Program-made: the position numbers and the translations under genes
Assembly: GCA_963753345.1 (NCBI GenBank)
Contig: CAVWBU010000027.1
Span: forward strand, 287,624 to 351,623
Reading direction: 5' to 3'
Length of the DNA stretch: 64,000 nt
DNA from: an uncultured Fibrobacterota bacterium
GTDB taxonomy: Bacteria; Fibrobacterota; Chitinivibrionia; Chitinivibrionales; FEN-1185
Shown here: piece by piece, positions 4,434 through 22,033 of the stretch
Position numbering within the stretch: position 1 is the first letter of the stretch
Layout: each line of letters begins with the position of its first letter
The notes under the pieces: generated by a model
Told to the model about the DNA's origin: nothing
What the model saw: only the letters and a program-made list of their open reading frames with translations
Database searches by the model: none

Positions 4434-4465
4434 CCTGGTGTGCGGTTCTTGAGCATAAACGGACG

Positions 4466-4978
4466 TCAGGGGTCCTTGATAAATGCGGCAGTGGGCAGCG
4501 GCACACCGCTCAGGTCTACACCAAGGGACAGGTATTTCACAAAATTGCTCAACGGTATCTCCCAGGCGCCGGCGTTATCGATGTTGAGCCGAATGCCTGC
4601 GATAGGAATGCTGCATTCGATGGAATCAAGCGTGTTGGTTGCAGTGTTTATCTGTCGGCACTTCATTCTTTCCATCCAGACCGTGTCCTGCTTGGCAACC
4701 GTGTCCGAAGCGATTGACCACGTGCCGGATTCCTTTTCCATGGTATCGGCGCCGTTGATATTCACATTGATGGAGTAGTCGTGAAGGCTGTCGTAAGACA
4801 TCACGATATGGAAGGTGGAGTCCGGAGTCCAGACAAGCTCGTATCTCCAGGTGCCGATCACCTGTTTCTCCAATTGAGACAGCGGCGGTGCGCTGCGCGG
4901 ACCGGATGGTTTGTCGATGTTGCATGAAACCAAAACCATGGATGCGACAAAAAATAAAAATGCGCAAAGTCGTTTCAT
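4466..4978 (-). CDS. lipoprotein, unknown function
   Basis: Internal ATG at 4976-4978 gives MKRLCAFLFFVASMVLVSC, a signal peptide plus lipobox (LVSC). The longer ORF to 5092 has no signal peptide. Confidence 0.6.
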   Translation of the reverse strand: MKRLCAFLFFVASMVLVSCNIDKPSGPRSAPPLSQLEKQVIGTWRYELVWTPDSTFHIVMSYDSLHDYSINVNINGADTMEKESGTWSIASDTVAKQDTVWMERMKCRQINTATNTLDSIECSIPIAGIRLNIDNAGAWEIPLSNFVKYLSLGVDLSGVPLPTAAFIKDP

Positions 4979-5064: not shown

Positions 5065-6687
5065 ATGTATTTTGAAATGACCAGGCAACCAAGCACCTTC
5101 CACATCAGACAAATCATGCATGATGAAGCTTCGCACAACAATCGATTGAAAGCCGTTGTCGCAGTACCGCCTGTCAAGGATTTCTACTTTACCAGGCACC
5201 GGTTCTCTTCCCTTGGCGCGAGAACTGTTTTCAAGATCCTCAAGGCCAGCGGCGTTGATGCCGCCTTTCTTGATTTCCCCTCAATGAAGAAGAATGGCCA
5301 ACAGATTGATATTCCTGATGAAATTGCGTACCTCAACCGGTGTATCATTCCGGGCGAAACCGGAAAACTGTCGTATTTTACGAAATATCAGCTATTTGGG
5401 CCTTCAGTTGAGGAATGCGCAGAAATAATTTGCAGTCATCACCCGGCGCTTTGTTTTCTGAGCTGCTTCGCCTTTTCGTACGGCAAGGAACTTATTGATC
5501 TTGCCGGAAATATCAAGAAAGTCAATCCTGATATCGTGGTTGTTGCAGGAGGCGCCGGAGTCACGGCCTATCCGCACTATTTTCTGAGAGACGCAAACAT
5601 TGATTTTGTGCTTTGTGGTGAAGCCGAGGTCAACCTGCACATCTTTCTGGAAGCGGCGGTAGCCAAGACAGTGACTTTCGATCAGGTGCCGAACTTAATG
5701 TGGAAAAAGGACGGGATGGTGCGACAATCCCGTGCCAAAAGCTCCTCCAATTCCACGATGATCGAACCGCTGATCGCCAAAGTGTGGGAAACCAACAAAT
5801 CAGTTTACTTTTCGACGTGTTTGAGCCGGGGATGTCCAAACGAATGCAAGTTTTGCTCCAATTGGATAGTGCATGGGAGGAGTTTTCGAACCGTTGCAAT
5901 CGACAAATTTATCAATGAATTGTGTGGTATTTCAATCGATGAGAACGATGACAGAAGAATTTATGTCAATTTTGAGGACGACAACCTGCTTTTAGCGCCG
6001 GACTACCTTATCGAAGTGATGGCACAGGTCAAAAAGCGGTTGCCGAAGGCGTCATTCCTTGCCGAAAACGGCCTCGACTTCCGGCTGCTCACGCCTGCCT
6101 TGGCCGACGAGCTTGTTTTACTGGGAATGACCTCATTTAACTTCACTCTTTGTTCCGTAAACAAAAACCTTCTGGAACAACAAGGCCGCAGAACTTCCCT
6201 TTCGCATTACGAATCAATCGTCAGGCACGTAGCCGCACAGCATGTTCCAATTCTCTCCTATTTTATTGCAGGACTTGAAGATGATTCAAAGCTTCATTCG
6301 GTGGATACGCTGGCATTCCTTTTTGGCCTGCCGACAACTGTTGGAATTTCAATGTTTTATGCTGTTGCAGGCATATATGGGTTCGAAAATCCAGAGCGGT
6401 TTGATAAAATTGCCCCCTGTATTTGCAATGGTTCGTCAGCATTTCCATGGAATGGCTCACTGTCGACAGAAGAGCTGATAACATCTTTCAGATTAAGCAG
6501 ATACGTCAACCTGCTGAAGTCGGTCAATAAGTCACCAATAGAAACAAAATTGCTGAAAAAAGTCACGGCTGAGCAGAAGCTCTTCACACTTGTCAACAAT
6601 GAGGAAGGTATTTCAATTGTCGAAGTGCCGGAATATCACCGCGGCATGGTGAGAATGTTTTTGCAGAAAGTCAAGCCGGAGGACTGA
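5065..6687 (+). CDS. B12-binding-domain radical SAM protein (class B rSAM), paralogue 1
   Basis: 540 aa. The N-terminal Rossmann-like part (DIVVVAGGAGVT) is followed by the CxxxCxxC cluster motif CPNECKFC. The start is uncertain (alternative ATGs at 5077 and 5116). Confidence 0.85.
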   Translation: MYFEMTRQPSTFHIRQIMHDEASHNNRLKAVVAVPPVKDFYFTRHRFSSLGARTVFKILKASGVDAAFLDFPSMKKNGQQIDIPDEIAYLNRCIIPGETGKLSYFTKYQLFGPSVEECAEIICSHHPALCFLSCFAFSYGKELIDLAGNIKKVNPDIVVVAGGAGVTAYPHYFLRDANIDFVLCGEAEVNLHIFLEAAVAKTVTFDQVPNLMWKKDGMVRQSRAKSSSNSTMIEPLIAKVWETNKSVYFSTCLSRGCPNECKFCSNWIVHGRSFRTVAIDKFINELCGISIDENDDRRIYVNFEDDNLLLAPDYLIEVMAQVKKRLPKASFLAENGLDFRLLTPALADELVLLGMTSFNFTLCSVNKNLLEQQGRRTSLSHYESIVRHVAAQHVPILSYFIAGLEDDSKLHSVDTLAFLFGLPTTVGISMFYAVAGIYGFENPERFDKIAPCICNGSSAFPWNGSLSTEELITSFRLSRYVNLLKSVNKSPIETKLLKKVTAEQKLFTLVNNEEGISIVEVPEYHRGMVRMFLQKVKPED

Positions 6688-7181: not shown

Positions 7182-7279
7182 AGGTGAGGAAGCCTCCTGT
7201 TACGAGCTGTTTGCAAATAAGAAATTGTTGCGGATGGAAAGAGAAGCGGGTCCAATGAGAAGCCTGAAATGCCGACATG

Positions 7280-10200
7280 TCAAGCAACGGCTTCAATTTT
7301 CTCGATGTTTTTCCTCCTGAAAGCAAGCCTGAAGCAGTTTCCCGTCGGATCGGTGTCGAGCCAGATACGGCCGCCGTGGGCGTTCATCACCATTTTACAG
7401 AAAAACAGCCCCAGCCCTTTGGAATACTGCGAGCTTGCGCTGCCCGAGCGGACATACTTGTCAAAGACCGCGGATTTTTCTTCTTCCGGAATTGGAACAC
7501 CGGAACTGAAAAAGCTTATGATGCTTTCATCATCGGTGACATCAAGGCTTAACACAACCCGTCCTTCCGCAGGAACGTATTTGGCAGCGTTGTTGAAGAT
7601 ATTCTGCATCACGCGTTCGACAAGATAGGTGTCCGCTTCAATGGCAAAAAGATCATTTGAGTTATCAACGTGCGAAATGGCCACGTTCTTTTCCTCGAAC
7701 ATGATATGCTTGCCCAGAGGCAGCGCCATGGCGAACAGGTTTTTTCCTGTAAGGGTGGCCTTCTTGAGCACAAGTTTGCCCTCTTCCATCTTCCCGATGT
7801 CGAGCAGATTCGACGAAAGGCTTGCTATGCCGGTGCAGCACTCCGAGACAATGCGGCTCGGTCCTGCGGATTTTCGGATCGTTCGGGAATTGTTTCGCAA
7901 GAAGGGAGGCATTGCCTTCGATACCAGCCGTATAATTTTTGATGTCATGCACAATGGTGCCCGCCAGGAGGCCCTTCATCCGCTCCGACTCAACGACTTT
8001 GACGTTGTACTCCTGCAATTCCTTGTTCTTTTCCTCAATGTCGCGCGTCTGTTCCTTCACCTTCTTCTCCAGGGTGCGGTTAAGACGCTTGAACCCGTCC
8101 ATGAGATAGGCATTCCGCAGGAGCGTATCGGCCTGCGCGGATAGAATCTGCGCCGCCTTCTTGGCGGTTTCGGAGAACAGGCCGCTCACCATGTCGTTGC
8201 CGAGGTAAACGCATCCGAGATAATATTCGCCATGGTACAACGGCACGCAGAGAACGGAACGGACCCTCTCTGTGTCTCCACTCAGTGTTTCTTTTGGTGC
8301 ATTTCTGGTAAGAATGATTGTCTTTTGTTTCTTGGTTTCTTCAATGATCTTTTCCGAATAATGCATGTCCCTGGGGTTTATCGATGCTCCGTCAAAATTC
8401 ATTCCCACTGTCTTGCCCGCAATACCGTCATCCTTATTCTCCTCCAGAAAAATATACCCGTATTGAGCGCCGGTCGCCTTGATCATGGCGGAAAGAATTT
8501 GCCCAAGCAAAGCGTCGATGTCGTCTATTTCCCGCATGGACGCGCTCACCTCGTACAGTGTGTCTATGCGAAGCTGGCTCACTTCCGATAGCGAGCCCTG
8601 CTGATCAATTGTTTTCGCCGGAGTATCCTTCTTGTATTCCACGATGACAATATCCGCTTTGTCCTTAAGCCGCTCGGTCTCAAGCTTGGCTCCGCATTGA
8701 TGGAAAAGCCTGTATGCGGCGTTAAACGGTCCCTTGCTTCGCCGGGCAGGTTGCAATCCTCAAGGAATAAACCGTAATCGCGAAGGGACTTGCCTTCTTC
8801 GTAGCGCATGTCGAGAACATGATGCTTCTTGATGGCTTTCTTGAAGAAGTACTTTGCGATGCGCTTTCTTCCCTTGAATGCATGAAACCAGGCGAGACAG
8901 CGCAACGCAGCACCCATGTGCGCGGGATAGACAATGCCACGGAAAAAGGCTTTTCTGCAATTGATGCCAAGGTCTTTGAGAAGTTTCTTTTCGGAAAGAT
9001 CCAGTTGCTTATTGGATTCGTTGGCCAGCCTGTTTCGTTTTTCGGAAATGAGGATTTCGCAATGGGTGGAATAGGCTGAGGCGATGTATTCCTGGTTGAG
9101 GTTTTTTTCTTTGATGGTTCTTAGCGATCGTAATGAAATATCGAAATGATTGCTTGACATTTCATTTAAAAACAAGGACATGTTTGCGAAAGAAATATTC
9201 GCTATCGTCTTTACCAGCGAATCATTCATTTGCTCGGATTTTTGTTTCAATGTCTACTCAAGTCTTCCTTGCCATTTTCGTCCTCCAGGAAGCGAATAAA
9301 GGACAGCAATCGTTCTTGCGAGAATATACACCTCTGATGATCATTGCATTCAATGCTTTGCGCGTTCCTCTTCATTCATGATTTCTTTGCATTTCTGCAA
9401 AGTTGCCAGTATAAAAAGCTAGTATAGCCAAGATGTTCTAAAGGCGTCAACTTGTCCCCAAGAGATCACCAACAGAACTGTAATTCATCAATGCTGCGTA
9501 TCAAATATTCTTCGGACTTTTTCCATATTGCCCCAAAGTAACATGTAGACAATGCCACAAAAACATTCCGCAAATAGCCAGAAGGTCTTTGCGATTAACT
9601 ATTCGCAATGATTTTATTGATTTCTTAAAATAAGCCAACGATCCGTTTCTTCATTAGCAAAACATAAGCGCCAACAATATGGTAAATGTAGGTCTCCGCT
9701 TTTTCGTAGCAATCTGGTAACCTGTCTGCAAGGTTCATTGCTTTAAGATGGACATATATTGCTAGAAGCATATCTTGAAAAAATAACGAATATGACAATT
9801 TGTTGAAAATTCTCAATATAAGCCGAATATTCTGATTGCTCATTTTTGGGGAACAAATGTTTCAAGCCAATTGAAAAGAATAATTGTACTATTGCCTTGT
9901 AACACAAGAAGAACACTTGCAACAATCTTGTTTCCAGGTAACCTGACATTCATTTGTCGTAAGGTTTCCGTAAAGAATTTTATCGAACTATCAAACTCCC
10001 CCATATTATGATAAATCGACCCCACCCTATACTTTATTTCCAATTGTTGATATTTCTCAAGTGCCTCAGGTTTTTCCAGCAATTTCAGGAACGTATTCAA
10101 TGCCTGCTGGTTCCTTCCCGTCATCATCAGCACATTCCCGAACTCCATCTGCACCTTGATCATGTCAACGGGAACAGGCAGACCCAGGCCAGGGCACTGC

Positions 10201-12436
10201 GAAGCCATGAGGGATGTGTTCATGAAATACCGGGTGGCAATGTCAAACGCGACTTTTTCCGTTGCATAACGCGCGGCTTCGTAGCAGATCTCTATGGCCT
10301 TAACGAGGTTTTTGCTCTTGAGGTAATATTCCGCAGCGTTGAATATGAATTCCTTGTCCGAGGCCATTTTTTCTTCATACACACGCGCTATCTTTTCATT
10401 GAGCGCAAATGCATCATCCCGGGACACACGCAGGGCAATGGATTCCTGGACCTTGTCATGTCTGAAGTAAAAGGCATTTTCGGATTTTCTGATGATGAAT
10501 CCGAGGTTTTCGAGCCTGCGCAGTATGCGAGTTACTTCCTCCTTTTCAAAGCCCCCCACTTTCTCCACAATGCCTGATTCGACTTTTCCCTGAACAAGCG
10601 ACGCAAGCATAAGATAACGTTTTTCATTTTCGTTTAATATTTCCAGCCTGGAAAGAACAAGAGAGACAGGGTCGAATTTTTCCGGCAATGATTTAATGTC
10701 TGACTTATTGTACATCCATCCTGTCGGGGAGGGTTTGAGTATTGAGGTGTTCACCAGGTATTGCACTGCTTCGGAAACGGTAAATGGATTGCCGTCTGTC
10801 TTGGCTGGACAGCGCATCATCAAGGACTTCAGCGTCCTGAATTTCCCCTATACGGGACGAAACAAGCTCTTTGATTTCCGCCCTTGAAAACGGCCTGATG
10901 TTGAGAAGCTTTCTTATTCCGATTTTCCTGAGGTCAGTGCCGTACGCAAAAATATCAGCATCCGATTTTTCGGTCCGAAAGGAAATCACGAGCATGCAAA
11001 CAGGCTGCAAAGCGAGGAATCTCTTGAGCACTTCAAAGGAGATCTGGTCTACCCATTGGAAATCGTCTACGAACACAATTGATTGCCGGAAAAGGCTGAT
11101 TGCGGAGAACAGCATGGACAGTACATGGATGATACGTTCAGCTTCTTTTTCCTTTTCTACTTTGTCTATCTCCCCCACTTTTTCAAAATGCCCATGCAAG
11201 TTCCGGGATTATCGAGCAAATAACGCCTGAATAATCGCTAAGGTTTTTCTGAAGGATTTCCTTGAACAGGACTTTTCCCTCTTGATCGACAAAGCGCGAT
11301 TTTTGACAGAAGTTGAAGCACAATGTTGCGGACAACGGAATATGGCTGGCTCGAGCTGAACCTATTGCATTTCGAAGAAAGAAACATTGTTCTATCTTCG
11401 TTTACCTTGGTCCTGAACCGGTCAACGATTTCGGTTTTGCCCATGCCGGATCTTGCCAAAGATCAGAAACGAGGAACCTTTCCCAAACTCCAATTGTTGG
11501 AGCCCATGACAAAGAGCTTCAATTTCCGTGTCCCGGCCGACAAATACTTTTGATCGGCCCGCCGCTATTATGGCGTCCCTTTCGCCTGGAATAAAGGGTT
11601 TGCCTTCTTCCCTGATGCAGAGGATCGCCTGTTCTATGTCGTGCTTGAATCCGCTCGCAGTCTGATACCGGTCGTCAGGGGAAGGTCGCAAGGATTTAAG
11701 AAGAATAGTGTTAAGGTACGCAGGAATGTTCTTAACAGGCTTTACCTCAGTCTTAAGCGTAAATTTGAGAAGTTCTTCAAGGGAATCCTTGTGATCGGGA
11801 AACGGCAGGCTGCCGGAGATCATCCTGTACAGAATGAGTCCAACGCAGAAAAGGTCGGACCGTGAATCTATTTTGAAATCGGTAAACCCCATCTGCTCGG
11901 GCGAAAGATACGGCATGGTTCCCACTATCCTGCCCTCAGGGAGCTTTCGCGCCTCTTCCTCGAGCATGGAAAGACCGAAATCAAGAAGCTCAAGTCCCCG
12001 CTCTTCATTGATGTAAATGTTGTGCGGGTTCAGGTCGCAATGGATTATGCCGCGCGCATGTATATATTCGAGCGCGTCCAGGACCTGGCTGAACATACAA
12101 AAGAGCTTCTTCCGCAGACAGCGCTTTTCTGTTCTCGCAGATTTTTGCAAGGGTCGTTCCGTCACGGTATGGATACAGAATCGAATAGGTGGTATCGTCG
12201 GCAAATGTCTCCGCAGGCCTGGCAATGTTCGGATGGTCGAGCGAAGATACAGTGTCAACTTCTTTCCTGAACCGTATTTTCCTTTGTAAAGCCTCACCGG
12301 AAGCGACTTTTTGCTCGTTGAGCGATTTGAGAAGAAAATGTTCCCCTGTTTCCTTTTTTCGGGTGAGAAATACATCGCTGTCCCGGCTGGAGGAAACAAG
12401 ATTGAGTATGTCGAATTTCTGCTGGAGCGTTTCCAT
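7280..12436 (-). pseudogene. Ser/Thr-kinase - AAA/P-loop ATPase - TPR - GAF - histidine-kinase mega-sensor, fragmented into at least 8 frames
   Basis: Collinear fragments: kinase N-lobe (12005-12436); C-lobe with HCDLNPHN/DFG/SPE (11422-12399); P-loop G-K|SGMGKT split at about 11450; ATPase/TPR pieces (9840-11199); unassignable debris at 9250-9840; then GAF, H-box HDIKN (7665-8756) and HATPase N/G boxes (7280-7954). Frame switches at about 12100, 11450, 11200-11280, 10810, several in 9250-9840, about 8740, and 7871-7874. Confidence 0.8.
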
Positions 12437-12614
12437 AGTTACTTAACGGAATTGATTGGAGGGAACTTCAGACAAAGATTGGCTAACAAGTGTATGATAA
12501 ATTCTATAATTGAAAAGGCTTTTCGGTCAAGGAGAAAAAGGGGTATCTTGAGCCCGTAGGATCTGGTCCTTTGAAAACTCCCCAAGGTATTCGATTATAA
12601 ATCATCTTGTTCCG

Positions 12615-14390
12615 TTACACCTTCTCTTTAAGAGTTTTTGCAAAGGCCTTCATCAGATATGGGTTGGATTTGATGCCCTTGGTTTGGCCCATTTCCTTTA
12701 TTGTTTGCAGCATTCGCGGCTTTGCAGGAAGATGCTGCTCGTAATCATAATAGACCACTATTATTGAAGATTCATTATTCTTGTTGTGTGCTGTCGATTC
12801 ATTTATGCTTTTTTCAAGGTCTGATGTCGAACGTACTTCGTAGAAATTAACACCAAATGCCAGCGCCAGATACCTATAATCAGGGTTTTGAATTTTTGTA
12901 CAAAATTCCAGTTCCCCGCCGTAGGACAAACATTGATTAATCTGGACCATGTTGTAATAATCGTCTTTGAAAATCATCCACGTAATACCCAGTTTGTATT
13001 GCACTGCTGTCAACACCTCATTACCGTGCATCAAAAAAGAGCCGTCGCCGCAAAGACAAAGAACGAATCTATCTGGAGAAGCGCATTTGCCACCGATGCA
13101 TCCGGCAACACTTTGCCCCATTGAGTATCCTGCCGCGGATGTAAAATATCCATTTTGCCGGGCTTTTAGGTGCCGGACTGAAGAAAAGGAGGATGCGCCG
13201 GTATCTGCAAAAACTATTGAATCATCAGGAAGCAATCTTGAAATTTCAGCGTAAATGTATTCTAATTTTAGTGGTACTGTTTTCTCTGCCATCTGGTTAT
13301 TTTGAGAAATATTGGCTGAAATAACATTATCAGCAATTGCTTTTGCAGATCTTGTTGGCGAATATGCAGTTTGTTTTAATTGAGCACCTAACGAGTTTAA
13401 TGTGGCCGGGATGTCTCCTGCAACTGCCAATTCAACAGGAAAGTTCATTGAAAAACGTAAGGTATCTGAATCAATAGACAAAATCTTCGTATTCTTGAAA
13501 AGATCAGGATCATATGCAAGCGTTTCGGCCTCGGAAAAGTCCATTCCTATCGCTAAAACCATATCGCTCTGTCGAATAAGCTTTTCAGCCGACCGGTGAC
13601 CATAATAGTCAATAACTCCCCCGAACAATTCCTGGAACTCGTTGAGAATTCCTTTTGAACCATGGGTTACAATGAACGGAGATTGAATTATATCAACAAT
13701 GGCTTGAAGTTCACCGCTGCAATTAGGATACACGCACCTATTTCCGATACAAATCAGTGGGTTCTTTGCTTCTCTTAACAATGCTATTATGTGCCCTATT
13801 TTGCCATTTTCAACCCGGCAGTCATTTGCAATGCGATATTGATCGGGTTTCATATCCTCATATTCGATTTCCACGCTGAAAAAATCGCTTGGAATCCCTA
13901 AATGCACAGGCCCATAAGGAACTGAAAGTGAATTCCGGAACAATTCTCTCAAATAATCTGGTATTCTATCAGGACTGTACGCTAAAATGGATCTCCTTGT
14001 AATGCAATCAAACAGACGGTTTATCGAATATGAAACTCCGTATCCTGAATCTTCCTGATACGCATTTTTTCCAAAAAGATTTGAAGACACGACTGGAGTT
14101 ATTGCAATCCCCGGAATCGCAGCCTTGAACATCTCTGCAATTCCACTCGCCAGATTTACAGCTCCGGGACCTGCCGTTCCTAAGACAAGGGCTGGTTTTT
14201 GGGAAACTTTGGTATAATCAAGTGCCATGAATCCGGCAGCGCCTTCGTGCTTTACGGATATGAATTTTATTTTTGAATCTTTAAGCGAGCTGAAGAATGA
14301 GAGGTAATGGGAGCCTGAGATACCGAAGGCATGTTCTATGCCTTCGAGTTCCAAACATCTTACAATTGCCTGCGCGACAGTTATTTTCAT
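12615..14390 (-). CDS. thiamine-diphosphate enzyme of the acetolactate-synthase/benzoylformate-decarboxylase family
   Basis: The N-terminal PYR domain has HEGAAGFMA and GPGAVNL. The C-terminal ThDP motif is GDGSFLMHGNE. The ATG at 14388-14390 (MKITVAQAIV…) fits family N-termini better than 14444. Confidence 0.88.
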   Translation of the reverse strand: MKITVAQAIVRCLELEGIEHAFGISGSHYLSFFSSLKDSKIKFISVKHEGAAGFMALDYTKVSQKPALVLGTAGPGAVNLASGIAEMFKAAIPGIAITPVVSSNLFGKNAYQEDSGYGVSYSINRLFDCITRRSILAYSPDRIPDYLRELFRNSLSVPYGPVHLGIPSDFFSVEIEYEDMKPDQYRIANDCRVENGKIGHIIALLREAKNPLICIGNRCVYPNCSGELQAIVDIIQSPFIVTHGSKGILNEFQELFGGVIDYYGHRSAEKLIRQSDMVLAIGMDFSEAETLAYDPDLFKNTKILSIDSDTLRFSMNFPVELAVAGDIPATLNSLGAQLKQTAYSPTRSAKAIADNVISANISQNNQMAEKTVPLKLEYIYAEISRLLPDDSIVFADTGASSFSSVRHLKARQNGYFTSAAGYSMGQSVAGCIGGKCASPDRFVLCLCGDGSFLMHGNEVLTAVQYKLGITWMIFKDDYYNMVQINQCLSYGGELEFCTKIQNPDYRYLALAFGVNFYEVRSTSDLEKSINESTAHNKNNESSIIVVYYDYEQHLPAKPRMLQTIKEMGQTKGIKSNPYLMKAFAKTLKEKV

Positions 14391-14550
14391 TGTGTGCTTT
14401 GCCTTATCAGCGTTGCATTCGATGCTCAAGTTCAGTTCAATCACAAAATCAAAAAATAGTTATTGGTTTTCAACAAAAGTGAAAAAGAAGGATGCTTCGT
14501 TTTTAAAACTGTGTCTATCGTAAGAATGTGCCAAATTCGGAACAAATAAT

Positions 14551-15858
14551 ATGACAAAGGCGCTTGCTCTCATCTCACCCAGGGGCAGCTTTAGCAGCAG
14601 CAATCCGGAATTTAAGAAATTCTGGAACGGCTCGCCCTATACCTCAACTTACCGTCAGGACTGGTCCGGCCTCGGAACCGGTTTGTTAATAGTAGCTGCA
14701 TTGACTCCATCCGAATATGATGTCAAAATTATCGACGAAAATATTGAATCCGTAGACTTTTCTAAAAAATTTGACCTTGTCGGCATTACCGCAATGACAC
14801 AGCAGGCACGTCGGGCATACCAGATTGCAGATGAATTCAGGAAAAGGGGTATGTTGGTAGTTATTGGGGGAATACATGCTACGATTTTGCCGGAGGAAGC
14901 AAAACTGCATTGTGACAGCGTCGTAATCGGCGAATCTGAAAATACCTGGCCAATGTTGCTAAAAGATCTAAAAGCAAAGGCTCTGTTACCCTTTTACAAA
15001 GCGGACAATATTGTAAGCCTTATAAATTCACCCTTACCAAGATATGACCTGCTAAAGAATAAGAAGTATTCGATTGTTTGGCTTCAGACCACCCGTGGAT
15101 GTCCGCACGATTGCGATTTTTGCGCTGCATCAAAGATTTTTGGGGCAAAATACAGGTTCAAAGACATTTATCAGTTAAGACTGGAAATAGAACTAATCCG
15201 AAAAGAACTTGGAAATGTCTTGATCGGTATCGCAGATGACAATATAGCGGTAAATAAGAATCATCTTTCCTTACTATTAGATTACCTCAAGACATCTGGC
15301 ATCAGATGGCTGGGCCAATCAGACATTTCAATTGCCCAGGATAGTGGAATGTTAAACATCGTTCAAAAAAGTAATTGCAAACTTCTGTTGTTAGGACTCG
15401 AAAGTATATCGGCAGAGAACTTAAGGCTTGTCAACAACAACTCCTGGAAGTACAATAAACTTTCAAGTTATTCTTCATATATTGGAAAAATTCAGGAAGC
15501 GGGCATCGGCGTCCTAGGCTCTTTTATTTTCGGCTTTGATTATGACGATGTTACTGTTTTTAAGCAAACTGCGGATTTCGTTTTGCAAAACAACCTTTAT
15601 TATGGTAACTTTAGCATTCTTACCCCATATCCGGGAACAAGATCAAGGGACAGATTAGTAAGAGAAAACAGATTGCTTCCCACTTCCTGGGAGAATTATA
15701 CGCTATGGGATTTAAATTTCATTCCAAAAAGAATGAGCACTTCGGAATTACAAGCAGGATTGTTTGATACTTATAAAATGATTAACACAAGAGAAGCCTT
15801 CGAAAAAAGAGCAATCTTTTTTAAAAATATTTTTAAAAGTCAAATGAGGAAATCTTGA
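14551..15858 (+). CDS. B12-binding-domain radical SAM protein (class B rSAM), paralogue 2
   Basis: 435 aa, frame intact. B12-domain segment DLVGITAMTQQ…VVIGGIHAT, then TTRGCPHDCDFC (CxxxCxxC). Confidence 0.9.
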   Translation: MTKALALISPRGSFSSSNPEFKKFWNGSPYTSTYRQDWSGLGTGLLIVAALTPSEYDVKIIDENIESVDFSKKFDLVGITAMTQQARRAYQIADEFRKRGMLVVIGGIHATILPEEAKLHCDSVVIGESENTWPMLLKDLKAKALLPFYKADNIVSLINSPLPRYDLLKNKKYSIVWLQTTRGCPHDCDFCAASKIFGAKYRFKDIYQLRLEIELIRKELGNVLIGIADDNIAVNKNHLSLLLDYLKTSGIRWLGQSDISIAQDSGMLNIVQKSNCKLLLLGLESISAENLRLVNNNSWKYNKLSSYSSYIGKIQEAGIGVLGSFIFGFDYDDVTVFKQTADFVLQNNLYYGNFSILTPYPGTRSRDRLVRENRLLPTSWENYTLWDLNFIPKRMSTSELQAGLFDTYKMINTREAFEKRAIFFKNIFKSQMRKS

Positions 15859-15882
15859 GAAGAGAATGGTATTTACAAGTAT

Positions 15883-17247
15883 TCAATTTTCTGCGGCAAC
15901 TTGTATTTCGAAATATTCTTCGCACACCAGTCTTGATACTCTTTTTTTGTTTTCTCTGTTTTTGTCTATAAGCTCAACATGTGCACGGATAACATTGTAT
16001 AGCAATTCATCTGATTTGCATTCAACGGTTACTTTGAGCACATTCTCATGCATCTTCATCAACCGTTCCACTTCTGCAGGATAAACTTTATTTCCTCCGA
16101 CATTGAACATTCGTTTTTTACACTCAATGAAATAGACATATCCTTCATCATCCATTTTGCCAATATCCCCGGAATGCAACCAACCATTTTTTATTGTCAA
16201 TTGTGTGGCTTCCGGATTATTATAGTACCCTTTCATCACATTTGCGCCTTTAATGCATATTTCTCCGACTTGCCCTGCCGGAAGGATTGATCATCCGAAT
16301 CGAGGATAGCCACTTCGCAACAGGGCAAAGCACGACCTACCGACCCTTGCTTTACTTTATCTCCGGGACAATGCCACGTACAAATCGGAGATGCTTCGGT
16401 AAGGCCATATCCCTACTTGAATTTCCACATTGAAATCCTTTTTTAAAATAATAGAATACTTTCGGCCAGTCTACTTCCCCCGCTCGATAGAATTTTTACG
16501 CGTGGGAAACTATGGATTTTAAATGTGGCAATTTCTTTAGAAAATAGTATACAAGCGGAATGCTGCATAAATATAGCGTCACTTTATATCGTTCAAGTTC
16601 AGCATTGCTATCTTTCGTATTGTTGAAAAGTTCGCAATATCCTCAATCAAAATATTTCCGCCGACTATAGAAGGAATAATAACGCCTGTCTGCAATGCAA
16701 ACAAATGATGGAATGGGATTATCGAACATGAGAACGGTGTTATCAGATACTTTGGGTTGCATATTATCCCAGCCTCTGCATTCGCCCTCAAACTCTCATT
16801 CGTCAGCATCGCGCCCTTTGCATACCCATCCGCTGCATTGGTGTACAGAATCAGGCACACATCCTCCAGCCCTTCCAACTTCCTTTCCTCCAGCCTGCAA
16901 TCCCTGAATTCAAATTCCTTTTCAAAATCAAACGTGTCCGTGCTTTTATCAATGCGTATGAGTGCGCCCGGCACAGTGTCGGCCATCATTTCGGCAAGTT
17001 CCAGCTTGCCGATGGCCGGATCCACCAGCACGCAGATCTTTCCGGACTTAATAATGCCGAACAGGGCATATACCATCTTGATGTGGTTGGGAGCAAAAAG
17101 ATAGACAAACGGCGAGTTGGAAACGGTCCGCTTATTAAGGCATTCCGCCACAGCGTCAATGTTCTGCCGGATTACATCGGGCGGGTAGGTCTTGTCCCTG
17201 AAGTAGATATTACCAAGATTTAAACTATCGGTGAGAAGCGGCATCAA
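15883..17247 (-). pseudogene. acyl-AMP/acyl-ACP ligase (ANL adenylate-forming family), at least 5 frame breaks
   Basis: The N-terminal fragment 16579-17247 and C-terminal fragment 15883-16239 (KGYYNNPEAT…WLHSGDIG…GGNKVYPAEVE) are in ORFs. My hand translation of 16240-16580 recovers …VKILSSGGSRLAE / KYSIILKKDFNVEIQVG / YGLTEASPICTW…SVGRALP / LPAGQVGEICIKG in alternating frames. Confidence 0.8.
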
Positions 17248-17304
17248 TAAATATTCTGTTTTAAGAATGAGTTCGCATCAATCGAAGTGCTGCTCAAGCA
17301 AAGG

Positions 17305-17574
17305 CTACTTTGAAACAGCCCCTTCTCTTGCCATTTCACCCTCAAGTACGGTCAAGAATTCGTTTAAAGACTCCGCTTCCATGGCTGAAATCGGAATTTC
17401 GATATTCAGTTCGTTCTCAAGTTTTGCCAACACAGCGACAAACTGCATTGAATCAAGGTTCACCTGCTCCCGCAGGTTCTTTGTCGCGTCAATAGTGGCT
17501 GGGTCGATATTGACGACGCTCTGGATAAGGCTGTAAATTTTCTTTCTTGTTGCTTCGTTCAAGTCATCCCCCAC
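17305..17574 (-). CDS. stand-alone acyl carrier protein
   Basis: 89 aa with a GTG start. Phosphopantetheine-attachment context QVNLDSMQFVAVLAKLE (DSx motif). Acidic, four-helix-sized. Confidence 0.8.
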   Translation of the reverse strand: MGDDLNEATRKKIYSLIQSVVNIDPATIDATKNLREQVNLDSMQFVAVLAKLENELNIEIPISAMEAESLNEFLTVLEGEMAREGAVSK

Positions 17575-17746
17575 TTCCGATTAAACCGATCATTTTTGCA
17601 TTGACAATCAATTTTGATCAAGGCGCTTGTCATTGATCATAGAGCACTCCACGTTCAACATCTTGCCCATATTTACCGATTTACGATGAGCTGTAACTTC
17701 TTTTGATTTATTAAGTTCCAGAAATGACATTTCGTATTGGTTTAAG

Positions 17747-18823
17747 TCAGTCATCTGAATATACATGCCTCCCTGCAGAAAGCGATATTCCCAGGTTTGG
17801 AACGCTGTCCAGCTTCTTAAGGAACAAATCCATTTTTTCTCGTGTGATATTTCCCCTGCCCCACGAACACGGCAGAGAATCGTCGAGTGCAAGCAATATT
17901 CCTTCAACCTGGCAGCCGTAAAAAGTGTCCGGCGAAGCAAGCCCGATGTCGAATCCGGCATCAAGCGCAAACGGCAAAGACACGATGCCGCCGTGGTAGA
18001 CAAAGACGTCCTTACGCAGGGGGTCTGTTACCGTCACATTCTGCGGAGCTGAAGCATCGCACACGATGGTGCCGGGCCTAAAATCATCCTGCGAGTACAT
18101 GGGAACGTAGGCGCTTGTCACAAAAATAACGATGTCGGATTGCTGGACCGCCATGTTGTTATCGGTGGATATTTCAATGTTGCTTGTCAACATATCTTTC
18201 CGGCTTTCCTGCAGCGTTTCGAGAGGGCCGATGCTGCGCGCCGTGAGGATCATTCTCTTTACCTTGTTGCCGAAATAGGAAACGCATCCGCTGCCGATAT
18301 CTCCGGAGGCGCCAACTATGCCGATGGTCGCCCTGCTCAAATCAACCCCGAGTTCTGCCGTTGTCTTCTCGATAGAACGGACGATAACGGCCGCGGTCAA
18401 CGTGTTGCCTGAGGTAAGCTTCATTTCATGCTTTTGCGCAAAGTCCTGTTCCCTACCCTGCAGAACGATCGAGGTGAATGCGCCGAGCGCGGCGACCGTG
18501 CATCCGGATTGTGAAGCGATTGAAAGCGCCTGATCGATCTTTTCCACCACCTTTTTAAGCCGTATATCCCTCATGTCCGGCAAAAACGGGACCATGATCA
18601 GGTGCGCATCGAAATAGTTCTTTTTGTCAAAGGTGAGGTTATGCCAATCAATCACTTTATAGGAAGGCGTCCATTCGAACAGCTTGATAAGGAGCTCATC
18701 GCGGTATGTTTTATCCGGACGCAAGTGTTTTATATAGGCCCTGAACAGGGGCATGTCTGCGGGATGCCCGATAAAAGCGACTTTTGCGGTAGGGCCGTGA
18801 TGTAGGTGGGTTGCATTCGTCAT
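17747..18823 (-). CDS. acyl-ACP reductase (cyanobacterial AAR)-like NAD(P)-dependent reductase
   Basis: By-eye collinearity with Synechococcus AAR as I recall it: ALGAFTSIV/ALGGFTSII, TSGNTLTA/TTGNTHTA, IGIVGASGDIGSG/VAVVGATGDIGSA, LTAR, YGCQVEGILLAL/FACFAEAMLLEF (catalytic Cys position), WGRGNITREKM/WGRNQITIEKM. Start at ATG 18823; the ORF is open to 18898. Confidence 0.7.
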   Translation of the reverse strand: MTNATHLHHGPTAKVAFIGHPADMPLFRAYIKHLRPDKTYRDELLIKLFEWTPSYKVIDWHNLTFDKKNYFDAHLIMVPFLPDMRDIRLKKVVEKIDQALSIASQSGCTVAALGAFTSIVLQGREQDFAQKHEMKLTSGNTLTAAVIVRSIEKTTAELGVDLSRATIGIVGASGDIGSGCVSYFGNKVKRMILTARSIGPLETLQESRKDMLTSNIEISTDNNMAVQQSDIVIFVTSAYVPMYSQDDFRPGTIVCDASAPQNVTVTDPLRKDVFVYHGGIVSLPFALDAGFDIGLASPDTFYGCQVEGILLALDDSLPCSWGRGNITREKMDLFLKKLDSVPNLGISLSAGRHVYSDD

Positions 18824-18860
18824 GGGCTGGTCGCGTCCGGTGCCTGAAGCGGTCAGACAG

Positions 18861-19874
18861 TCACAGTGTTTCGAGAATGGAAGCATAGTCCGCTTCACCG
18901 ATCGTGCGGTTGAACTGGATCCGGACGGTCCCGGAACCGGTATCGTGATGAATTTCCCGCGCGGAAAGGGAAATGCCGCCTATTTCAAACGGGTCGTCGT
19001 GCCACTCAAAGGTGCCATCGTATTTGAAAAGCATGCCTCGTGGAGAAATATTAATCAGAAAAACCGGAAGAACGCGCTCGCCGAATATGAGCGACGTATG
19101 CTTTTCGACAAGCTGGCGTTCGTGGGCCCTGTCCGAAGTCGCGGTGAGGGTCTGCACCATTTTTCCCATGTTTGGTTCGCTGAGCGCTTCCTTGAAGATC
19201 AGCCTGCAGTTCTTATGCTTGAGGTCGTTGAACAGCGGCTCCGCATCAAAGGCGATCTCTCCTATTTTAACGGCAACCTGGGCCGCGTCGAAAAGACCGT
19301 CGTAGTAGAACATCATGCCCTTTTGGGAGACATTGACCACATAAGCGCGGATGTCTTTGCCGTTCAGCTTGATGTTGCTGTATTTGCCGATATTATGGCG
19401 GGGGTATTTCCGGTCGTCAACCTGCGACCTGGTCAATTCCTCCTTGATTGCATGGATCATGGAGTCGATGTTGGTCTTCATTTTCTCCTTGAGAATATGA
19501 CCGAGCACCTCCTCGATAACCGGAATGCCGAGATTATAATCGATGGTAAAGTAGATCTTGATGCCTTCGTTCTGAAAGTCCTCAACCTTCCACGTTCCGT
19601 TGATGTTCTCAAAATCGCCGTCTATCGATTCAAACCGCAGCTCGTAGTTGGCAACGTCGTAATAGTCGCGTTCCACCCAGCGCAGCGGCGCCTCTTCAAC
19701 CGTGACGAACCACTCCGATTTTCCGTCGGTCGGGGTTTTCTCAATGACGTTCACCTTGTCGACGTTCTCCATGATGGCTTCGTACCGGGAGTAGTCGGAG
19801 ATGATGGTCCAGGCGAATTCCTTACGCACCTTTCCCTTGAGCACCGCTTCGGTTGAGACTCGTTCGTAGGCCAT
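18861..19874 (-). CDS. SRPBCC (START/cyclase-dehydrase-like) domain fused to two PilZ domains
   Basis: 337 aa. The first ~140 aa have an SRPBCC-like pattern. Two PilZ signatures follow: RKYPR…NVSQKG and RAHER…NISPRG (RxxxR + D/NxSxxG). Confidence 0.8.
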   Translation of the reverse strand: MAYERVSTEAVLKGKVRKEFAWTIISDYSRYEAIMENVDKVNVIEKTPTDGKSEWFVTVEEAPLRWVERDYYDVANYELRFESIDGDFENINGTWKVEDFQNEGIKIYFTIDYNLGIPVIEEVLGHILKEKMKTNIDSMIHAIKEELTRSQVDDRKYPRHNIGKYSNIKLNGKDIRAYVVNVSQKGMMFYYDGLFDAAQVAVKIGEIAFDAEPLFNDLKHKNCRLIFKEALSEPNMGKMVQTLTATSDRAHERQLVEKHTSLIFGERVLPVFLINISPRGMLFKYDGTFEWHDDPFEIGGISLSAREIHHDTGSGTVRIQFNRTIGEADYASILETL

Positions 19875-20133
19875 GACTCAATTGCCCTGCTGGTTATTGT
19901 AGCGCATAAACTGAACCCGCGACAGATTTACTGTTCCGTGAAGAATGTGCATCGGCACCTGATATGATGTCTTCTCCAAGTGATGAAAGTGAGGAGAGAT
20001 TCTGCACGTCAAAGACGCTCATGACGCCAAACACGTTCTCGCTTTTTTTCTCGTCTGCGGCAGCATCCAGGCACTGGTGTGACTACGTTCACCTGGATTC
20101 GGCGTAACAAAGACATATCAAAGATAGAATTTG

Positions 20134-20149
20134 TTGCGCTAAAGCGCAA
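20134..20149 (-). terminator. possible terminator hairpin downstream of the bio operon
   Basis: Palindrome TTGCGCT-AA-AGCGCAA lies 56 nt after the bioG stop. On the minus strand it is followed by caaattctatcttt (T-rich). Short stem, weak call. Confidence 0.3.
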
Positions 20150-20204
20150 GCGCCGTGTTGAGCGTCCCGAGAATTCCCATTTTGCAACTTGCCGTGCGAC
20201 CACC

Positions 20205-20912
20205 CTATGATTCCGCTTTGCAGCCGATGAGCCGCCCTACATCCGGTTCTGCGGGCCCGGCAAAGAACGCGTGCCCGCCCGGCACCGAAACAAATCTGGA
20301 GCCCAAATCATCAGCCAGCGCTTTTCCCGCGGCCACGGGGACAATTGCATCCTCACTGCCGTTAAGAACCATGGAGGCACACCGCAATTTTGCCAGTACC
20401 GGAAGCAGGTTTGCCTGTTCGAGAAACAACAGGCCGGCAGCAAGCGAATTCACGCCGTACCGTGCGGATTGTAAAACATCAGGCGAAAGGCCGGCGGTCA
20501 GCAGAAAATCGCGCAGGACCGTATTCCCGGGTGTCGGAAGCCGTTGTCGCATGGCGGCCAGCACACTTGTCTTCCAGCCGGACCTGAACCCTTCACACCT
20601 GCAGAACGACGGCGTGGCGGACAGAAGAACCAGTTTGTGCGGTTCGCATCGTAGCGCAAGCGCGCCGGCGATTATCGCGCCGGTGGACCATCCGGCAACA
20701 GCGTTCGCCGTTGCAAGTTCATTTTCAAATGTTCGTTCGACTTTCGATACCCAATGGGACAGGAGCGTTTCACCGTCAAAAAGAGACGGCATCAACGGAT
20801 TCACATCCACGTATATGGCGCTGGCGCCGAACAGGGGCTGCAAAAGTTTTGGGCCAATGCCCCACCCTCCGAAAACAAGCCACCTGTCAACCATGGAGTT
20901 TTTTCCATTCAC
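20205..20912 (-). CDS. bioG: pimeloyl-ACP methyl ester esterase, BioG/DUF452-like alpha/beta hydrolase
   Basis: N-terminal LVFGGWG and nucleophile elbow AGWSTG. It is the last gene of the bio operon. The start (20912 or 20894) overlaps the bioF 3' end. Confidence 0.6.
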   Translation of the reverse strand: MNGKNSMVDRWLVFGGWGIGPKLLQPLFGASAIYVDVNPLMPSLFDGETLLSHWVSKVERTFENELATANAVAGWSTGAIIAGALALRCEPHKLVLLSATPSFCRCEGFRSGWKTSVLAAMRQRLPTPGNTVLRDFLLTAGLSPDVLQSARYGVNSLAAGLLFLEQANLLPVLAKLRCASMVLNGSEDAIVPVAAGKALADDLGSRFVSVPGGHAFFAGPAEPDVGRLIGCKAES

Positions 20913-22033
20913 CGAGTGTGTCGATCACAAATGCTATATCTGCGTCCGACAGCCCGGAATGCACCGAGAACCGGACGCGTGCCTTGCCCTGCGGGACCGT
21001 GGGCGGCCGGATGGCCGGCGCCTTAATGCCGCGCGTACGAAGAAAAGCTGAGAGCTCGACGGCTTGTTTATCGCTTCCCGCAAGGCACGGCACGATCTGC
21101 GTCGAGGAATTAAGCGTGTCGAAGCCGCAATCGCGGATTCCCTCTCGCAGAATACGCGCTTTTGTCAATAGTGCCGGGCCGAGCCCGGGGTGTTTGCGGC
21201 AGATGACGCACCGCGGCAAGGTCATGCGCCAGCACCGACTGCGGCAGCCCCGTGGAATAGACAAGGCTGCGCGCCAGGTTGACAAAACAGTCTCTGAAGA
21301 ACGAATTGCCCGCAAAGAAACCGCCCAATCCGGCAACGGCCTTGCTGAGCGTTCCCATCACAACGTCGATCCCGCTCTCCACGCCGCATTCCTCCACCAA
21401 CCCGGCAAGCGTTTTCCCGAACACGCCCGTTGCGTGAGCCTCGTCGACCATCACCATGCAGCCGAACTGCTTTGCAAGCCCGCAGATGTCGGCAAGCGGC
21501 GCCGTGTCGCCGTCCATGCTGAACACGGAATCGGTGACAATGAGCCGTTCCTTCTTTGTGGAGACCGCAAGTCTGTCCCTTAGATCCGTCATGTCGCAAT
21601 GGCAATACCGCACGAGCGCCGCGCCCGACAGGCGCACGCCGTCGAGGATCGAGGCGTGATTGAGCCGGTCGCAGAAGACCTCGGTGTCACGCCCGCACAG
21701 GGCCTGAATGATGCCCAGGTTCGCGCATACCCGGAATTAAACACCAGCGCCGCCTCGGTTTTTTTCCACTGGGCAAGCTCCAGTTCGAGTGCGTCGTAAA
21801 GCGGCGAACGGGTTTCGATGAGACGCGAGGCGAGATTTCCCGAAAAGCAAGAATCCGCCAGACGTTCTGCCTCCGACCTGACCTCGGGATCGGTATGCAG
21901 CGAACAATAGCTGTTGGTCGGCGAGATCGAGGCGCGCGCCGCAAGGCGACGGGCCCATTGTCCTGAACAGGTCGAGGCTTTTTCTGCTGTCAAGTTCCGC
22001 GTCCAGGCGGTCGTATATAGGCGAGTCATTCAT
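20887..22033 (-). pseudogene. bioF: 8-amino-7-oxononanoate synthase, three frame breaks
   Basis: Fragments in ORFs 21737-22249 (MNDSPIYDRL…), 21589-22029 (…NSYCSLHTDPEV…ALVFNSGY), 21110-21637 (…DSVFSMDGD…VDEAHATG…GTLSKA) and 20887-21336 (…IRPPTVPQGKARVRFS). Switches at about 21920, 21722 and 21205. The ATG at 22033 overlaps the bioA stop by 8 nt. Confidence 0.85.

Follow-up and report, generated by a model that had tools for sequence, protein, structure and literature searches.

We found that a stretch of DNA from an uncultured Fibrobacterota bacterium (FEN-1185) carries a gene cassette whose gene order is common to 26 related loci, nearly all of them labelled Fibrobacterota. In our preferred reading, to which as a whole we assign a probability of roughly 0.5, the locus is a copy of a mobile cassette, largely restricted to Fibrobacterota, that would direct the activation of a fatty acid, its reduction to an aldehyde and, sometimes, extension of that aldehyde, beside a putative c-di-GMP-binding lipid carrier and sensor kinases. 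Positions are those of the window, the whole 64,000-nt stretch of contig CAVWBU010000027.1 that we analysed, in which the cassette is read at 7280-19874 with the following features:

7280-12436, minus strand: giant sensor protein (Ser/Thr kinase-AAA_16-TPR-GAF-HATPase), located by tblastn with the 1,719-aa L004 ortholog
12615-14390, minus strand: ALS-superfamily ThDP enzyme, 591 aa, intact (TPP_enzyme_N, M and C)
14551-15858, plus strand: B12-binding (class B) radical SAM enzyme, 435 aa, intact (PF02310, 52.8 bits; PF04055, 36.6 bits; motif CPHDCDFC)
15876-17247, minus strand: ANL (acyl-AMP-forming) ligase, frameshifted (PF00501 and FadD/MenE-type NCBIfam matches on fragments)
17305-17574, minus strand: dedicated acyl carrier protein (PF00550, 43 bits; DSM serine), likely start 17562, ~84 aa
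17609-18823, minus strand: AAR-like NADPH thioester reductase (TIGR04058, fold, motifs); current ORF 17747-18823, 358 aa
18861-19874, minus strand: SRPBCC(START)-PilZ-PilZ fusion, 337 aa, intact (PF03364, 58.7 bits; PF07238, 27.5 bits)
19875-20204, no strand: upstream cassette boundary, an intergenic spacer to the bioH-like gene of a bio operon (ORF map)

A first-pass annotation had described 12615-19874 as an orphan cluster of six genes. All six are real ORFs of the superfamilies it gave, and its domain assignments were borne out by Pfam and NCBIfam. Its boundaries were too narrow, as the conserved unit runs downstream to ~7280 through the frameshifted kinase gene, and "orphan" is wrong given the recurrence of the cassette. 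The shared order is (response-regulator/histidine kinase, RR-HK), SRPBCC-PilZ, AAR-like reductase, ACP, ANL ligase, B12-radical SAM (present or absent), ThDP enzyme (present or absent) and a giant Ser/Thr-kinase/AAA/TPR/GAF/histidine kinase, with reductase identities of 46-95% across the loci that keep it; in L086 and L087 the layout is identical to that of the window and every gene is intact. The core consists of SRPBCC-PilZ, reductase, ACP and ligase, usually with kinases, while the ThDP and radical SAM enzymes are variable, lineage-dependent accessories. We observed directly which genes are there and what domains they encode, their catalytic motifs and folds, the synteny, and that the ThDP and radical SAM genes occur in some loci but not in others. 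In the window, L004, L007 and L008 the GC content of the cassette is 5-15 points below that of the flanking DNA, and its genomic contexts differ between loci. None of the observations that the first-pass annotation had listed as counting against it was made: the genes do occur together in related loci, and, as it had supposed of a cluster of such composition, there was no match to a characterised pathway. Literature and database searches likewise returned no characterised equivalent of the cassette. No single member of the cassette has been characterised either, which counts against the preferred reading.

The reductase resembles AAR in sequence, fold and motifs. Its best NCBIfam match was TIGR04058 (118 bits; cutoff 449.7), followed by PigE (83 bits; cutoff 850), its best PDB match was AAR (6jzq, E 1e-23), and in Foldseek its AF2 model (pLDDT 89.4) matched AAR with TM 0.76-0.81, compared to 0.3-0.45 for GluTR/AroE. 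Thus, the protein is closer to AAR than to shikimate dehydrogenase/GluTR, the other affinity that had been entertained for it. Cys304, GASGDIG and R196 are invariant. We rejected cyanobacterial AAR proper, since 118 bits is far under the cutoff and ADO, sought as a partner of the reductase, was not found. The reductase has in common with the AAR of the AAR-ADO alkane pathway, its closest relative in sequence and fold, the catalytic Cys as well as two motifs, GxSGDIG and TAR, and like it stands alone and is presumed to act on acyl-ACP, but the identity is ~25-34%. Moreover, whereas cyanobacterial AAR draws on FAS acyl-ACP, the reductase here comes with a dedicated ACP and ligase and pairs with SRPBCC-PilZ and sensor kinases. 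The ORF at 17747-18823 exists as annotated but is not whole: a 1-bp (+1) insertion near 17753 leaves 358 aa, compared to 404-419 aa in orthologs, and removes ~46 C-terminal residues that by orthology are encoded to ~17609.

The ACP, 72-82% identical to those of L004, L001 and L086, is a holo-type carrier bearing the DSM serine. Ligase orthologs are intact at 453-477 aa, and cassette ligases score best to FadD-type models; in L029 a KS-AT-DH-ER-KR-ACP PKS without a release domain stands in place of ACP and ligase. The PKS replacement and the FadD-type scores point to a fatty-type substrate class, most likely a saturated acid. The short ligases, together with ACP scores for DltC and AmcB equal to those for fatty-acid ACPs, leave room for a non-fatty acid.

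The enzymatic core would thus amount to a carboxylic acid reductase split over three proteins: the ANL ligase would adenylate a carboxylic acid and load it onto the dedicated ACP, and the AAR-like enzyme would take the acyl group on its conserved cysteine and reduce it with NADPH to the free aldehyde. CARs (A-T-R) and LuxC/D/E also proceed by acid adenylation, thioester tethering and NADPH reduction to aldehyde, the overall logic proposed here, although the cassette uses three separate proteins and a reductase of AAR fold in contrast to the SDR-type R domain of CAR or ALDH-type LuxC. In the window variant, the ALS-like ThDP enzyme would join the aldehyde to an acyl anion derived from a 2-oxo acid, yielding an acyloin (alpha-hydroxyketone), while changes to the carbon skeleton would fall to the B12-radical SAM enzyme. 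Substrate, step order and product of this acid, acyl-ACP, aldehyde and acyloin chemistry are all predictions.

The two accessory enzymes limit how far the scheme may be generalised. The ThDP enzyme is present in 11 of the 26 loci and the window-type radical SAM enzyme in five, so that the first-pass route from acid through aldehyde and acyloin to a radical SAM product can, as a fixed pathway with both steps, describe at most one variant, and the acyloin step is not general. The radical SAM protein is 96% identical to its L086 ortholog and has a weak Pfam match to DUF4070; it reached no NCBIfam equivalog cutoff (best, BchE, 80 bits compared to 481). The ThDP enzyme shares with ALS/AHAS-family carboligases (acetolactate synthase; PDB entries BbmA and CsmA) the three-domain architecture, the catalytic HE Glu and GDG, and its best PDB match was BbmA (8x3x; 222 bits, compared to 161 bits for ALS). 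It differs from them in two respects. The 'NN' metal motif is replaced by DD (as in the window), ED, EN or NK, and the protein belongs to a clade of its own, specific to the cassette, in which ~45 proteins share 40% identity or more with it.

Could the ThDP enzyme and its neighbours simply be unrelated? Directly upstream, and in the same orientation, is a bioC-D-A-F-bioH-like operon, and public pipelines call the ThDP protein acetolactate synthase, so one might suppose a housekeeping acetolactate synthase next to an ACP, ligase and reductase that serve biotin (pimeloyl-ACP) synthesis. However, outside the window/L006/L086 lineage the cassette has neighbours other than the bio operon, and the ThDP protein missed every ALS equivalog cutoff in NCBIfam, its clade being confined to cassette-type contigs and separated by a drop to at most 32% identity from generic ALS. 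The synteny data thus largely refute this supposition, which we consider very improbable.

Two other chemistries are better candidates, although we hold both to be unlikely. In prodigiosin and koreenceine biosynthesis, AAR-type domains are proposed to offload intermediates from the ACP in the form of aldehydes (PMC8341465, PMC6498172). PigE and KecF reduce a thioester tethered to a carrier by means of an AAR/COG5322-type domain, as is proposed for the reductase here. In prodigiosin MAP biosynthesis, which also includes a ThDP enzyme, PigD acts on the thioester before the AAR-like N-terminal domain of PigE reduces it (PMC8341465). By analogy, and given that PigE is the second NCBIfam match of the reductase, the ThDP enzyme might act first, adding a 2-oxo-acid-derived acyl group to an ACP-tethered acyl or enoyl chain, with subsequent reductive release of a branched aldehyde by the AAR-like enzyme. 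In contrast to PigD, however, the ThDP enzyme here is ALS-like, with no PigD-type match seen, and optional; it is missing from many loci that keep reductase, ACP and ligase, and thus the reductase cannot depend on it. Moreover, PigE and KecF each carry a fused aminotransferase, a domain that here is neither fused nor adjacent. Slightly less probable still is offloading by other means, either four-electron reduction to an alcohol or TAD-like amidation, giving a fatty alcohol or amide instead of an aldehyde or acyloin. The carmabin TAD, which has the AAR fold (TM ~0.75) and the catalytic Cys, is proposed to amidate instead of reduce (bioRxiv 10.1101/2024.10.28.620694), and L019 has an extra SDR/NAD_binding_4-type reductase within the cassette. 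Yet the reductase is much nearer AAR than TAD (E 1e-23 compared to 1e-18; identity 25% compared to 16%), retains the AAR-type ILTAR motif along with the invariant R196, and like AAR is not fused to other domains.

The SRPBCC-PilZ gene always adjoins the reductase gene and often starts 4-18 nt past the RR-HK gene. Its family has 86 members only, many on contigs equal in size to those of the AAR and ThDP matches. The AF2 model (pLDDT 83.7) consists of an SRPBCC fold and two barrel-plus-helix units, and Foldseek matched it to TTHA0849 (TMt 0.93) and to the tandem-PilZ receptor PlzA (E 4e-7). In the Pfam search no single PilZ stretch exceeded the threshold; RxxxR and NxSxxG each occur twice (RKYPR/NVSQKG and RAHER/NISPRG). 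The domain 1 motifs are kept in 21 of 21 orthologs, and domain 2 is absent or degenerate in about half, which, like the Pfam result, counts against the preferred reading. The protein thus shares with PilZ receptors (PlzA, YcgR) the RxxxR and (D/N)xSxxG motifs and the beta-barrel-plus-helix fold, in a tandem arrangement resembling PlzA, but differs in its N-terminal SRPBCC/START lipid-binding domain, an architecture of which we found no description in the literature searched. We predict that it would hold a hydrophobic product in the START-like pocket and that the canonical PilZ domain(s) would couple the pathway to c-di-GMP.

Since the ligase, the reductase 3' end and the giant kinase are frameshifted, the window copy is either inactive or mis-assembled. 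The first-pass suggestion that a broken ligase might silence the cluster is weak, because frameshifts also affect the kinase, the reductase tail and nearby bioF, while L086 and L087, of identical layout, are intact. The ligase frame switches repeatedly at ~16240-16770 and again near 15964; compared to the intact 477-aa L004 ortholog its N- and C-terminal parts are well conserved and the middle is scrambled, and 19 of its 20 gaps relative to L086 are not multiples of 3. The kinase gene (~1,700 codons) has at least six frame switches, with tblastn HSPs of the L004 kinase in alternating frames (51-78% identity). We give about even odds to assembly or consensus errors (e.g. long-read, mixed-strain) and a cassette functional in the organism: the window comes from a 353-kb MAG contig, relatives, among them L006 (~99% nucleotide identity in neighbouring genes), L086 and L087, have all four genes in intact form, and the indels fall in stretches where strains diverge strongly (identity to L006 is 92.8% for bioF and 99.2-99.4% for its neighbours). 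Against this, most indels are outside homopolymers and respect gene boundaries, ThDP, radical SAM, SRPBCC-PilZ, bioA, bioC and bioD read through without interruption, their gaps relative to L086 being only paired and mutually compensating, and long ORFs are intact across the rest of the window, a pattern that fits gene-specific decay.

The window copy also lacks an RR-HK, none being found in the whole window by tblastn, which together with the broken ligase and kinase genes counts against the preferred reading. Most relatives carry the RR-HK gene where the window has the spacer and bioH-like gene, a boundary common to L006, L086 and L087. The giant kinase, whose Pfam domains we read from the intact ortholog, follows on the downstream side in 15 of the 26 loci, and the two sensor kinases, missed in the first-pass annotation, accompany the core more consistently than any other partner. 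A possible alpha-hydroxyketone lipid beside sensor kinases recalls, by functional analogy only, the CqsA/LqsA autoinducer systems, although the two enzymes that name these systems are PLP-dependent acyl-CoA transferases with no homology to any cassette protein and a signal role here is speculative. Because the cassette is normally bracketed by RR-HK and the giant STK-HK, we predict a link to these kinases, such that the product would probably be made under, or feed into, a dedicated signalling circuit.

We found that all six genes proposed by the first-pass annotation to form an orphan acyl-ACP/aldehyde cluster (SRPBCC-PilZ protein, reductase, ACP, ligase, radical SAM enzyme and ThDP enzyme) were present in the window at the positions given for them, based on an ORF map and HMM scans, and that the conserved unit extends beyond them to a giant kinase gene (12436-7280, minus strand). 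The features of the region are:

5065-6687, plus strand: second B12-binding radical SAM protein, 540 aa, different from the cassette radical SAM protein and convergent with the giant kinase gene
7280-12436, minus strand: Ser/Thr kinase-AAA_16-TPR-GAF-HATPase/histidine kinase, about 1,700 codons, at least six frame switches
12615-14390, minus strand: ThDP enzyme, intact, three domains (TPP_enzyme_N, M, C)
14551-15858, plus strand: B12-binding radical SAM protein, intact (PF02310 and PF04055; cluster motif CPHDCDFC)
15883-17247, minus strand: ANL ligase in two fragments (AMP-binding, PF00501)
17305-17574, minus strand: ACP (PP-binding carrier protein, DSM serine)
17747-18823, minus strand: AAR-like reductase ORF, 358 aa (top NCBIfam match TIGR04058, then the N-terminal part of PigE)
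18822-19856, plus strand: 344-aa ORF antisense to the whole SRPBCC-PilZ gene (ORF map)
18861-19874, minus strand: SRPBCC-PilZ protein, 337 aa (Polyketide_cyc/SRPBCC 58.7 bits, PilZ 27.5 bits)
20887-22033, minus strand: bioF of the adjoining biotin operon, three unbalanced 1-bp indels

The antisense ORF showed no sign of being a gene and probably arose as a side effect of codon composition. A scan for promoters and terminators gave no interpretable result; promoter-like sites were in excess, as is typical of AT-rich DNA.

The cluster is not an orphan, since the cassette recurs in related loci. We scored 26 such loci by tblastn for the cassette genes, with many of the absences falling at contig ends. 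ACP and ligase genes lay beside the reductase gene in 20 of the 26, as well as in one rearranged locus; SRPBCC(-PilZ) was found in 21, an upstream response-regulator/HisKA/HATPase gene in 16, and the giant kinase downstream in 15. In contrast, the ThDP enzyme was present in 11/26 loci and a radical SAM gene of the window type in 5/26; in several loci (for instance L009 and L012) the ligase gene is followed directly by the kinase gene. Other loci carry different tailoring genes: an Epimerase/NAD_binding_4-type SDR with a different B12-radical SAM-like protein in L019, and a distant radical SAM protein in L018. Thus, based on these counts, the core consists of SRPBCC-PilZ, reductase, ACP and ligase, usually flanked by two kinases, and the ThDP and radical SAM enzymes, which the first-pass annotation had listed in the cluster, are accessories. 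In two relatives, L086 and L087, the layout of the window is matched exactly, bio operon included, and every gene is intact (ligase 453, reductase 419 and BioF 381 aa). The superfamily of every cassette enzyme is known and each chemistry has precedent, and our searches found no characterised example of this combination of genes. We conclude that the cassette is conserved, uncharacterised and largely restricted to the phylum. We also note that the second radical SAM protein of the window has a 61%-identical ortholog in the same post-kinase position only in L018 (18549-20078, minus strand).

The assignment of the reductase to the AAR type held when set against the shikimate and GluTR families. 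An AF2 model (pLDDT 89.4, pTM 0.89) adopts the two-domain AAR fold, and Foldseek matched it to AAR (6jzu/6jzq) with TM 0.76-0.81 and E 1e-23, compared to TM of only 0.3-0.45 for GluTR and shikimate dehydrogenase (AroE). By sequence, the top match among solved structures was likewise AAR 6jzq (E 1e-23), with PigE next. The Cys of an 'FGC' motif aligned with catalytic Cys294 in the 'FAC' of SeAAR, an ILTAR motif is common to the window reductase and AAR in the alignment to 6jzq, and C304, G171-G177 (GASGDIG, the NADPH-binding Rossmann motif) and R196 were invariant in 16 reductase sequences. While the reductase thus resembles AAR in catalytic Cys, Rossmann motif and fold, it differs in its equivalog score and in its partner: both the window reductase (118.4 bits) and the intact L086 ortholog (116 bits) fell below the curated TIGR04058 cutoff of 449.7, and tblastn with two cyanobacterial ADO queries detected no ADO in the window or the 26 related loci (best E 1.3). 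We found 365 homologs at E ≤ 0.001 in a collection of 5.8 billion proteins, the best 120 of which were all at least 50% identical; the sources named were Chitinivibrionales, Chitinispirillaceae, Fibrobacterota, and single Latescibacteria and Polyangiaceae MAGs. Among species-representative genomes, there were 24 reductase loci at 46-95% identity, after which the next relatives were cyanobacterial AARs, only 29-34% identical. One related locus, L028, carries a second AAR-like gene after the ACP gene (4255-4770, plus strand; 47% identity, truncated at the end of the contig), which looks like a tandem paralog replacing the ligase.

The partners of the reductase bear on its substrate. Orthologs of the ANL ligase are intact short ANL enzymes of 453-477 aa (the window copy is not an intact ORF); their highest scores were to FadD and MenE models (none reaching the cutoff) and to luciferase, 4CL and FadD structures, which gave no firm call of substrate. 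L029 has, in place of the ACP and ligase genes, a gene for a 2,093-aa highly reducing type I PKS (7263-13544, minus strand; KS-AT-DH-ER-KR-ACP). This PKS has no TE or release domain, and its gene is convergent with that of the AAR-like reductase. Such an arrangement is consistent with a saturated chain of the fatty type being released reductively from its ACP. Literature searches for standalone AARs in PKS release (AAR, reductive release and polyketide) returned nothing relevant. In L001/L007, a DDE_Tnp_1 transposase (IS) lies between the ACP and ligase genes (11672-12691, minus strand) of an otherwise intact cassette; the gene call for the radical SAM protein there is truncated, at 325 aa.

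The SRPBCC-PilZ protein combines two domains that are themselves canonical. It scored 58.7 bits to PF03364 (cutoff 23.4) and, as a whole protein, 27.5 bits to PilZ (PF07238; cutoff 22.5), with no single stretch above the PilZ threshold. Its model (pLDDT 83.7) has a helix-grip domain (1-149) followed by two beta-barrel-plus-helix units, and Foldseek matched it to TTHA0849 (2d4r; TM 0.93 on the target, rmsd 1.6), as well as to polyketide ARO/CYCs and the tandem-PilZ c-di-GMP receptor PlzA (7mie, E 4e-7). The c-di-GMP-binding motifs RxxxR and (D/N)xSxxG occur in domain 1 as RKYPR...NVSQKG and in domain 2 as RAHER...NISPRG. Those of domain 1 were kept in 21/21 orthologs, with R155, R159, S183 and G186 invariant across 45 sequences, while the second PilZ unit was absent or degenerate in about half of the orthologs. 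The family is limited to 86 members, a large share of which lie on contigs size-matched to those of the AAR and ThDP matches, and the gene often begins 4-18 nt past the gene for the response-regulator histidine kinase. The searched literature contained no description of an SRPBCC-PilZ fusion, and no paper linking c-di-GMP or PilZ to fatty aldehydes was found.

Of the accessory enzymes, the ThDP protein is ALS-like, yet it is not ALS. It shares the ThDP architecture and cofactor motifs of ALS, with the catalytic glutamate (HE) and the GDG conserved, but fell below every ALS equivalog cutoff (PRK08322, 294.8 versus 509 bits; TIGR00118, 262.6 versus 538). In the window, the metal-binding 'NN' of the ThDP motif (GDG...NN) is replaced by DD, and relatives have ED, EN, NK or DN there. 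The closest solved structures were BbmA (222 bits) and CsmA, which ranked before, or interspersed with, true ALS (161 bits); we use these as PDB names only, since nothing relevant to their role was found in the literature searched. The clade comprises about 45 proteins that are at least 40% identical, followed by a drop to at most 32% (generic ALS). Cassettes that are otherwise closely related carry one of two types of ThDP enzyme, which share about 45% identity: the window, L086, L008 and L013 have one type, and L004, L007, L020 and others have the second. This explains why ThDP identity between the window and L007 is only 45% when reductase identity between them is 83%. A segment swap by horizontal transfer in the window genome, considered in view of the low identity of its ThDP, radical SAM and ligase genes to L007, was partly withdrawn, because L086 shares the segment at 85-96% identity; the difference lies in the two types distributed among lineages, not in an event unique to this genome. 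The cassette radical SAM protein exceeded both cutoffs (PF02310, 52.8 bits; PF04055, 36.6 bits) and its CPHDCDFC fits CxxxCxxC, and it reached none of the named subfamilies compared (BchE, HpnJ, HpnR, PhpK and others; best BchE, 80.5 versus 481 bits).

Several genes of the window copy are broken. The first-pass annotation had recognised the damage to the ligase, which we confirmed, but had missed that to the reductase: compared to L006, a strain about 99% identical in this gene, and the relative L086 (87%), the window carries a single additional base near 17753, which yields 358 aa instead of 404-419. Aligned to L086, the ligase gene shows 20 gaps, of which 19 have lengths not divisible by three, and bioF shows three single-base indels (near 21923, 21725 and 21200); the fragments of the giant kinase are 51-78% identical to an intact 1,719-aa ortholog in L004. 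The ThDP, radical SAM, SRPBCC-PilZ, ACP, bioA, bioC, bioD and bioH-like genes are uninterrupted ORFs in which gaps relative to L086 come as compensating pairs, and ORFs of up to 1,061 aa occur at 26-64 kb of the window. The main alternative to real decay is an assembly error or mixed-strain consensus. The source is a MAG contig, and the indels lie in tracts of unusual strain-level divergence, as in bioF, a divergent allele with 92.8% nucleotide identity to L006 compared to 99.2-99.4% for the flanking genes, which favours such an artefact; against it, most indels fall outside homopolymers and are confined by gene boundaries, which favours decay. In either case, the suggestion that a broken ligase may silence the cluster could hold only for this strain, since L086 and L087 have all genes intact.

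In the window (8000-18000), L004, L007 and L008, GC content drops by 5-15 points from the flanks to the cassette, and the L086 cassette shows the same gradient relative to its bio genes. Its contexts also vary, with a bioC-bioD-bioA-bioF-bioH-like operon directly upstream in the window, and HD-GYP/RR/STAS or glycosyltransferase genes elsewhere. The low GC and differing contexts suggest horizontal exchange within Fibrobacterota and island-like behaviour. We rejected a link to the biotin pathway because the bio operon adjoins the cassette only in the window-type lineage. Genes for HD-GYP-type (HD_5) phosphodiesterases and receivers lie just upstream in L001 (1385-2642, minus strand) and L004 (5773-7574, minus strand; with STAS), but we dropped them as a part of the cassette since they are not general across loci and are absent from the window.

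Gene content, motifs, folds and synteny are what we observed, and from them we infer substrate, order of steps, product and kinase role; the best-supported reading is that the cassette follows the logic of a carboxylic acid reductase split into ligase, ACP and AAR-like enzyme. The ligase would load an acid onto the ACP, and the AAR-like enzyme would release the aldehyde with NADPH. The SRPBCC-PilZ protein is a putative c-di-GMP-responsive factor that would either bind the hydrophobic product or regulate the reductase, a role that might resemble the way AAR passes its aldehyde on to a partner. In variants with a ThDP enzyme, ALS-type carboligation with a 2-oxo acid could yield an acyloin, and the radical SAM protein may further modify the carbon skeleton.

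Two main alternatives concern the release step. One is an order like that of PigD and PigE, in which the ThDP step precedes reductive release. Reduction of carrier-bound thioesters by AAR-type domains is known outside cyanobacteria: the domain of PigE acts in this way after the ThDP enzyme PigD (PMC8341465), and KecF is predicted to carry out an AAR-type reduction of a carrier-bound thioester in the koreenceine pathway (PMC6498172). The match to PigE (NF053554) reached 83 bits against a cutoff of 850 and was confined to the reductase part (profile positions 78-314 of 837), and the AAR-like protein has no class III aminotransferase fusion of the PigE type. The other is offloading chemistry different from aldehyde formation, which the carmabin 'TAD' paper indicates an AAR fold may serve (bioRxiv 10.1101/2024.10.28.620694); that domain was the next Foldseek match to the reductase model (TM about 0.75), behind AAR itself.

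Beyond the split reductase logic, the cassette might be a self-contained lipid-signal module, in which a fatty aldehyde or ThDP-made alpha-hydroxyketone produced on the private ACP would pass to a c-di-GMP-gated START carrier, and the co-inherited kinases would sense the product or control its synthesis. This would amount to a quorum-sensing-like or developmental system of Fibrobacterota, with CAI-1/LAI-1-type chemistry achieved by unrelated enzymes; we consider it unlikely, with a probability of roughly 0.15.

The conserved combination is a split acid-to-aldehyde system with a START-PilZ receptor and two sensor kinases, to which ThDP, B12-radical SAM, SDR or PKS tailoring is added interchangeably, and the intact locus of the L086 type offers a template that could be used directly for heterologous expression. 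If our reading is correct, c-di-GMP signalling would be tied directly to lipid-aldehyde or acyloin metabolism, the range of trans-acting release enzymes of the AAR type would widen beyond cyanobacteria, and the cassette would provide a first handle on the specialised metabolism or signalling of the largely uncultured Chitinivibrionales and Chitinispirillaceae.
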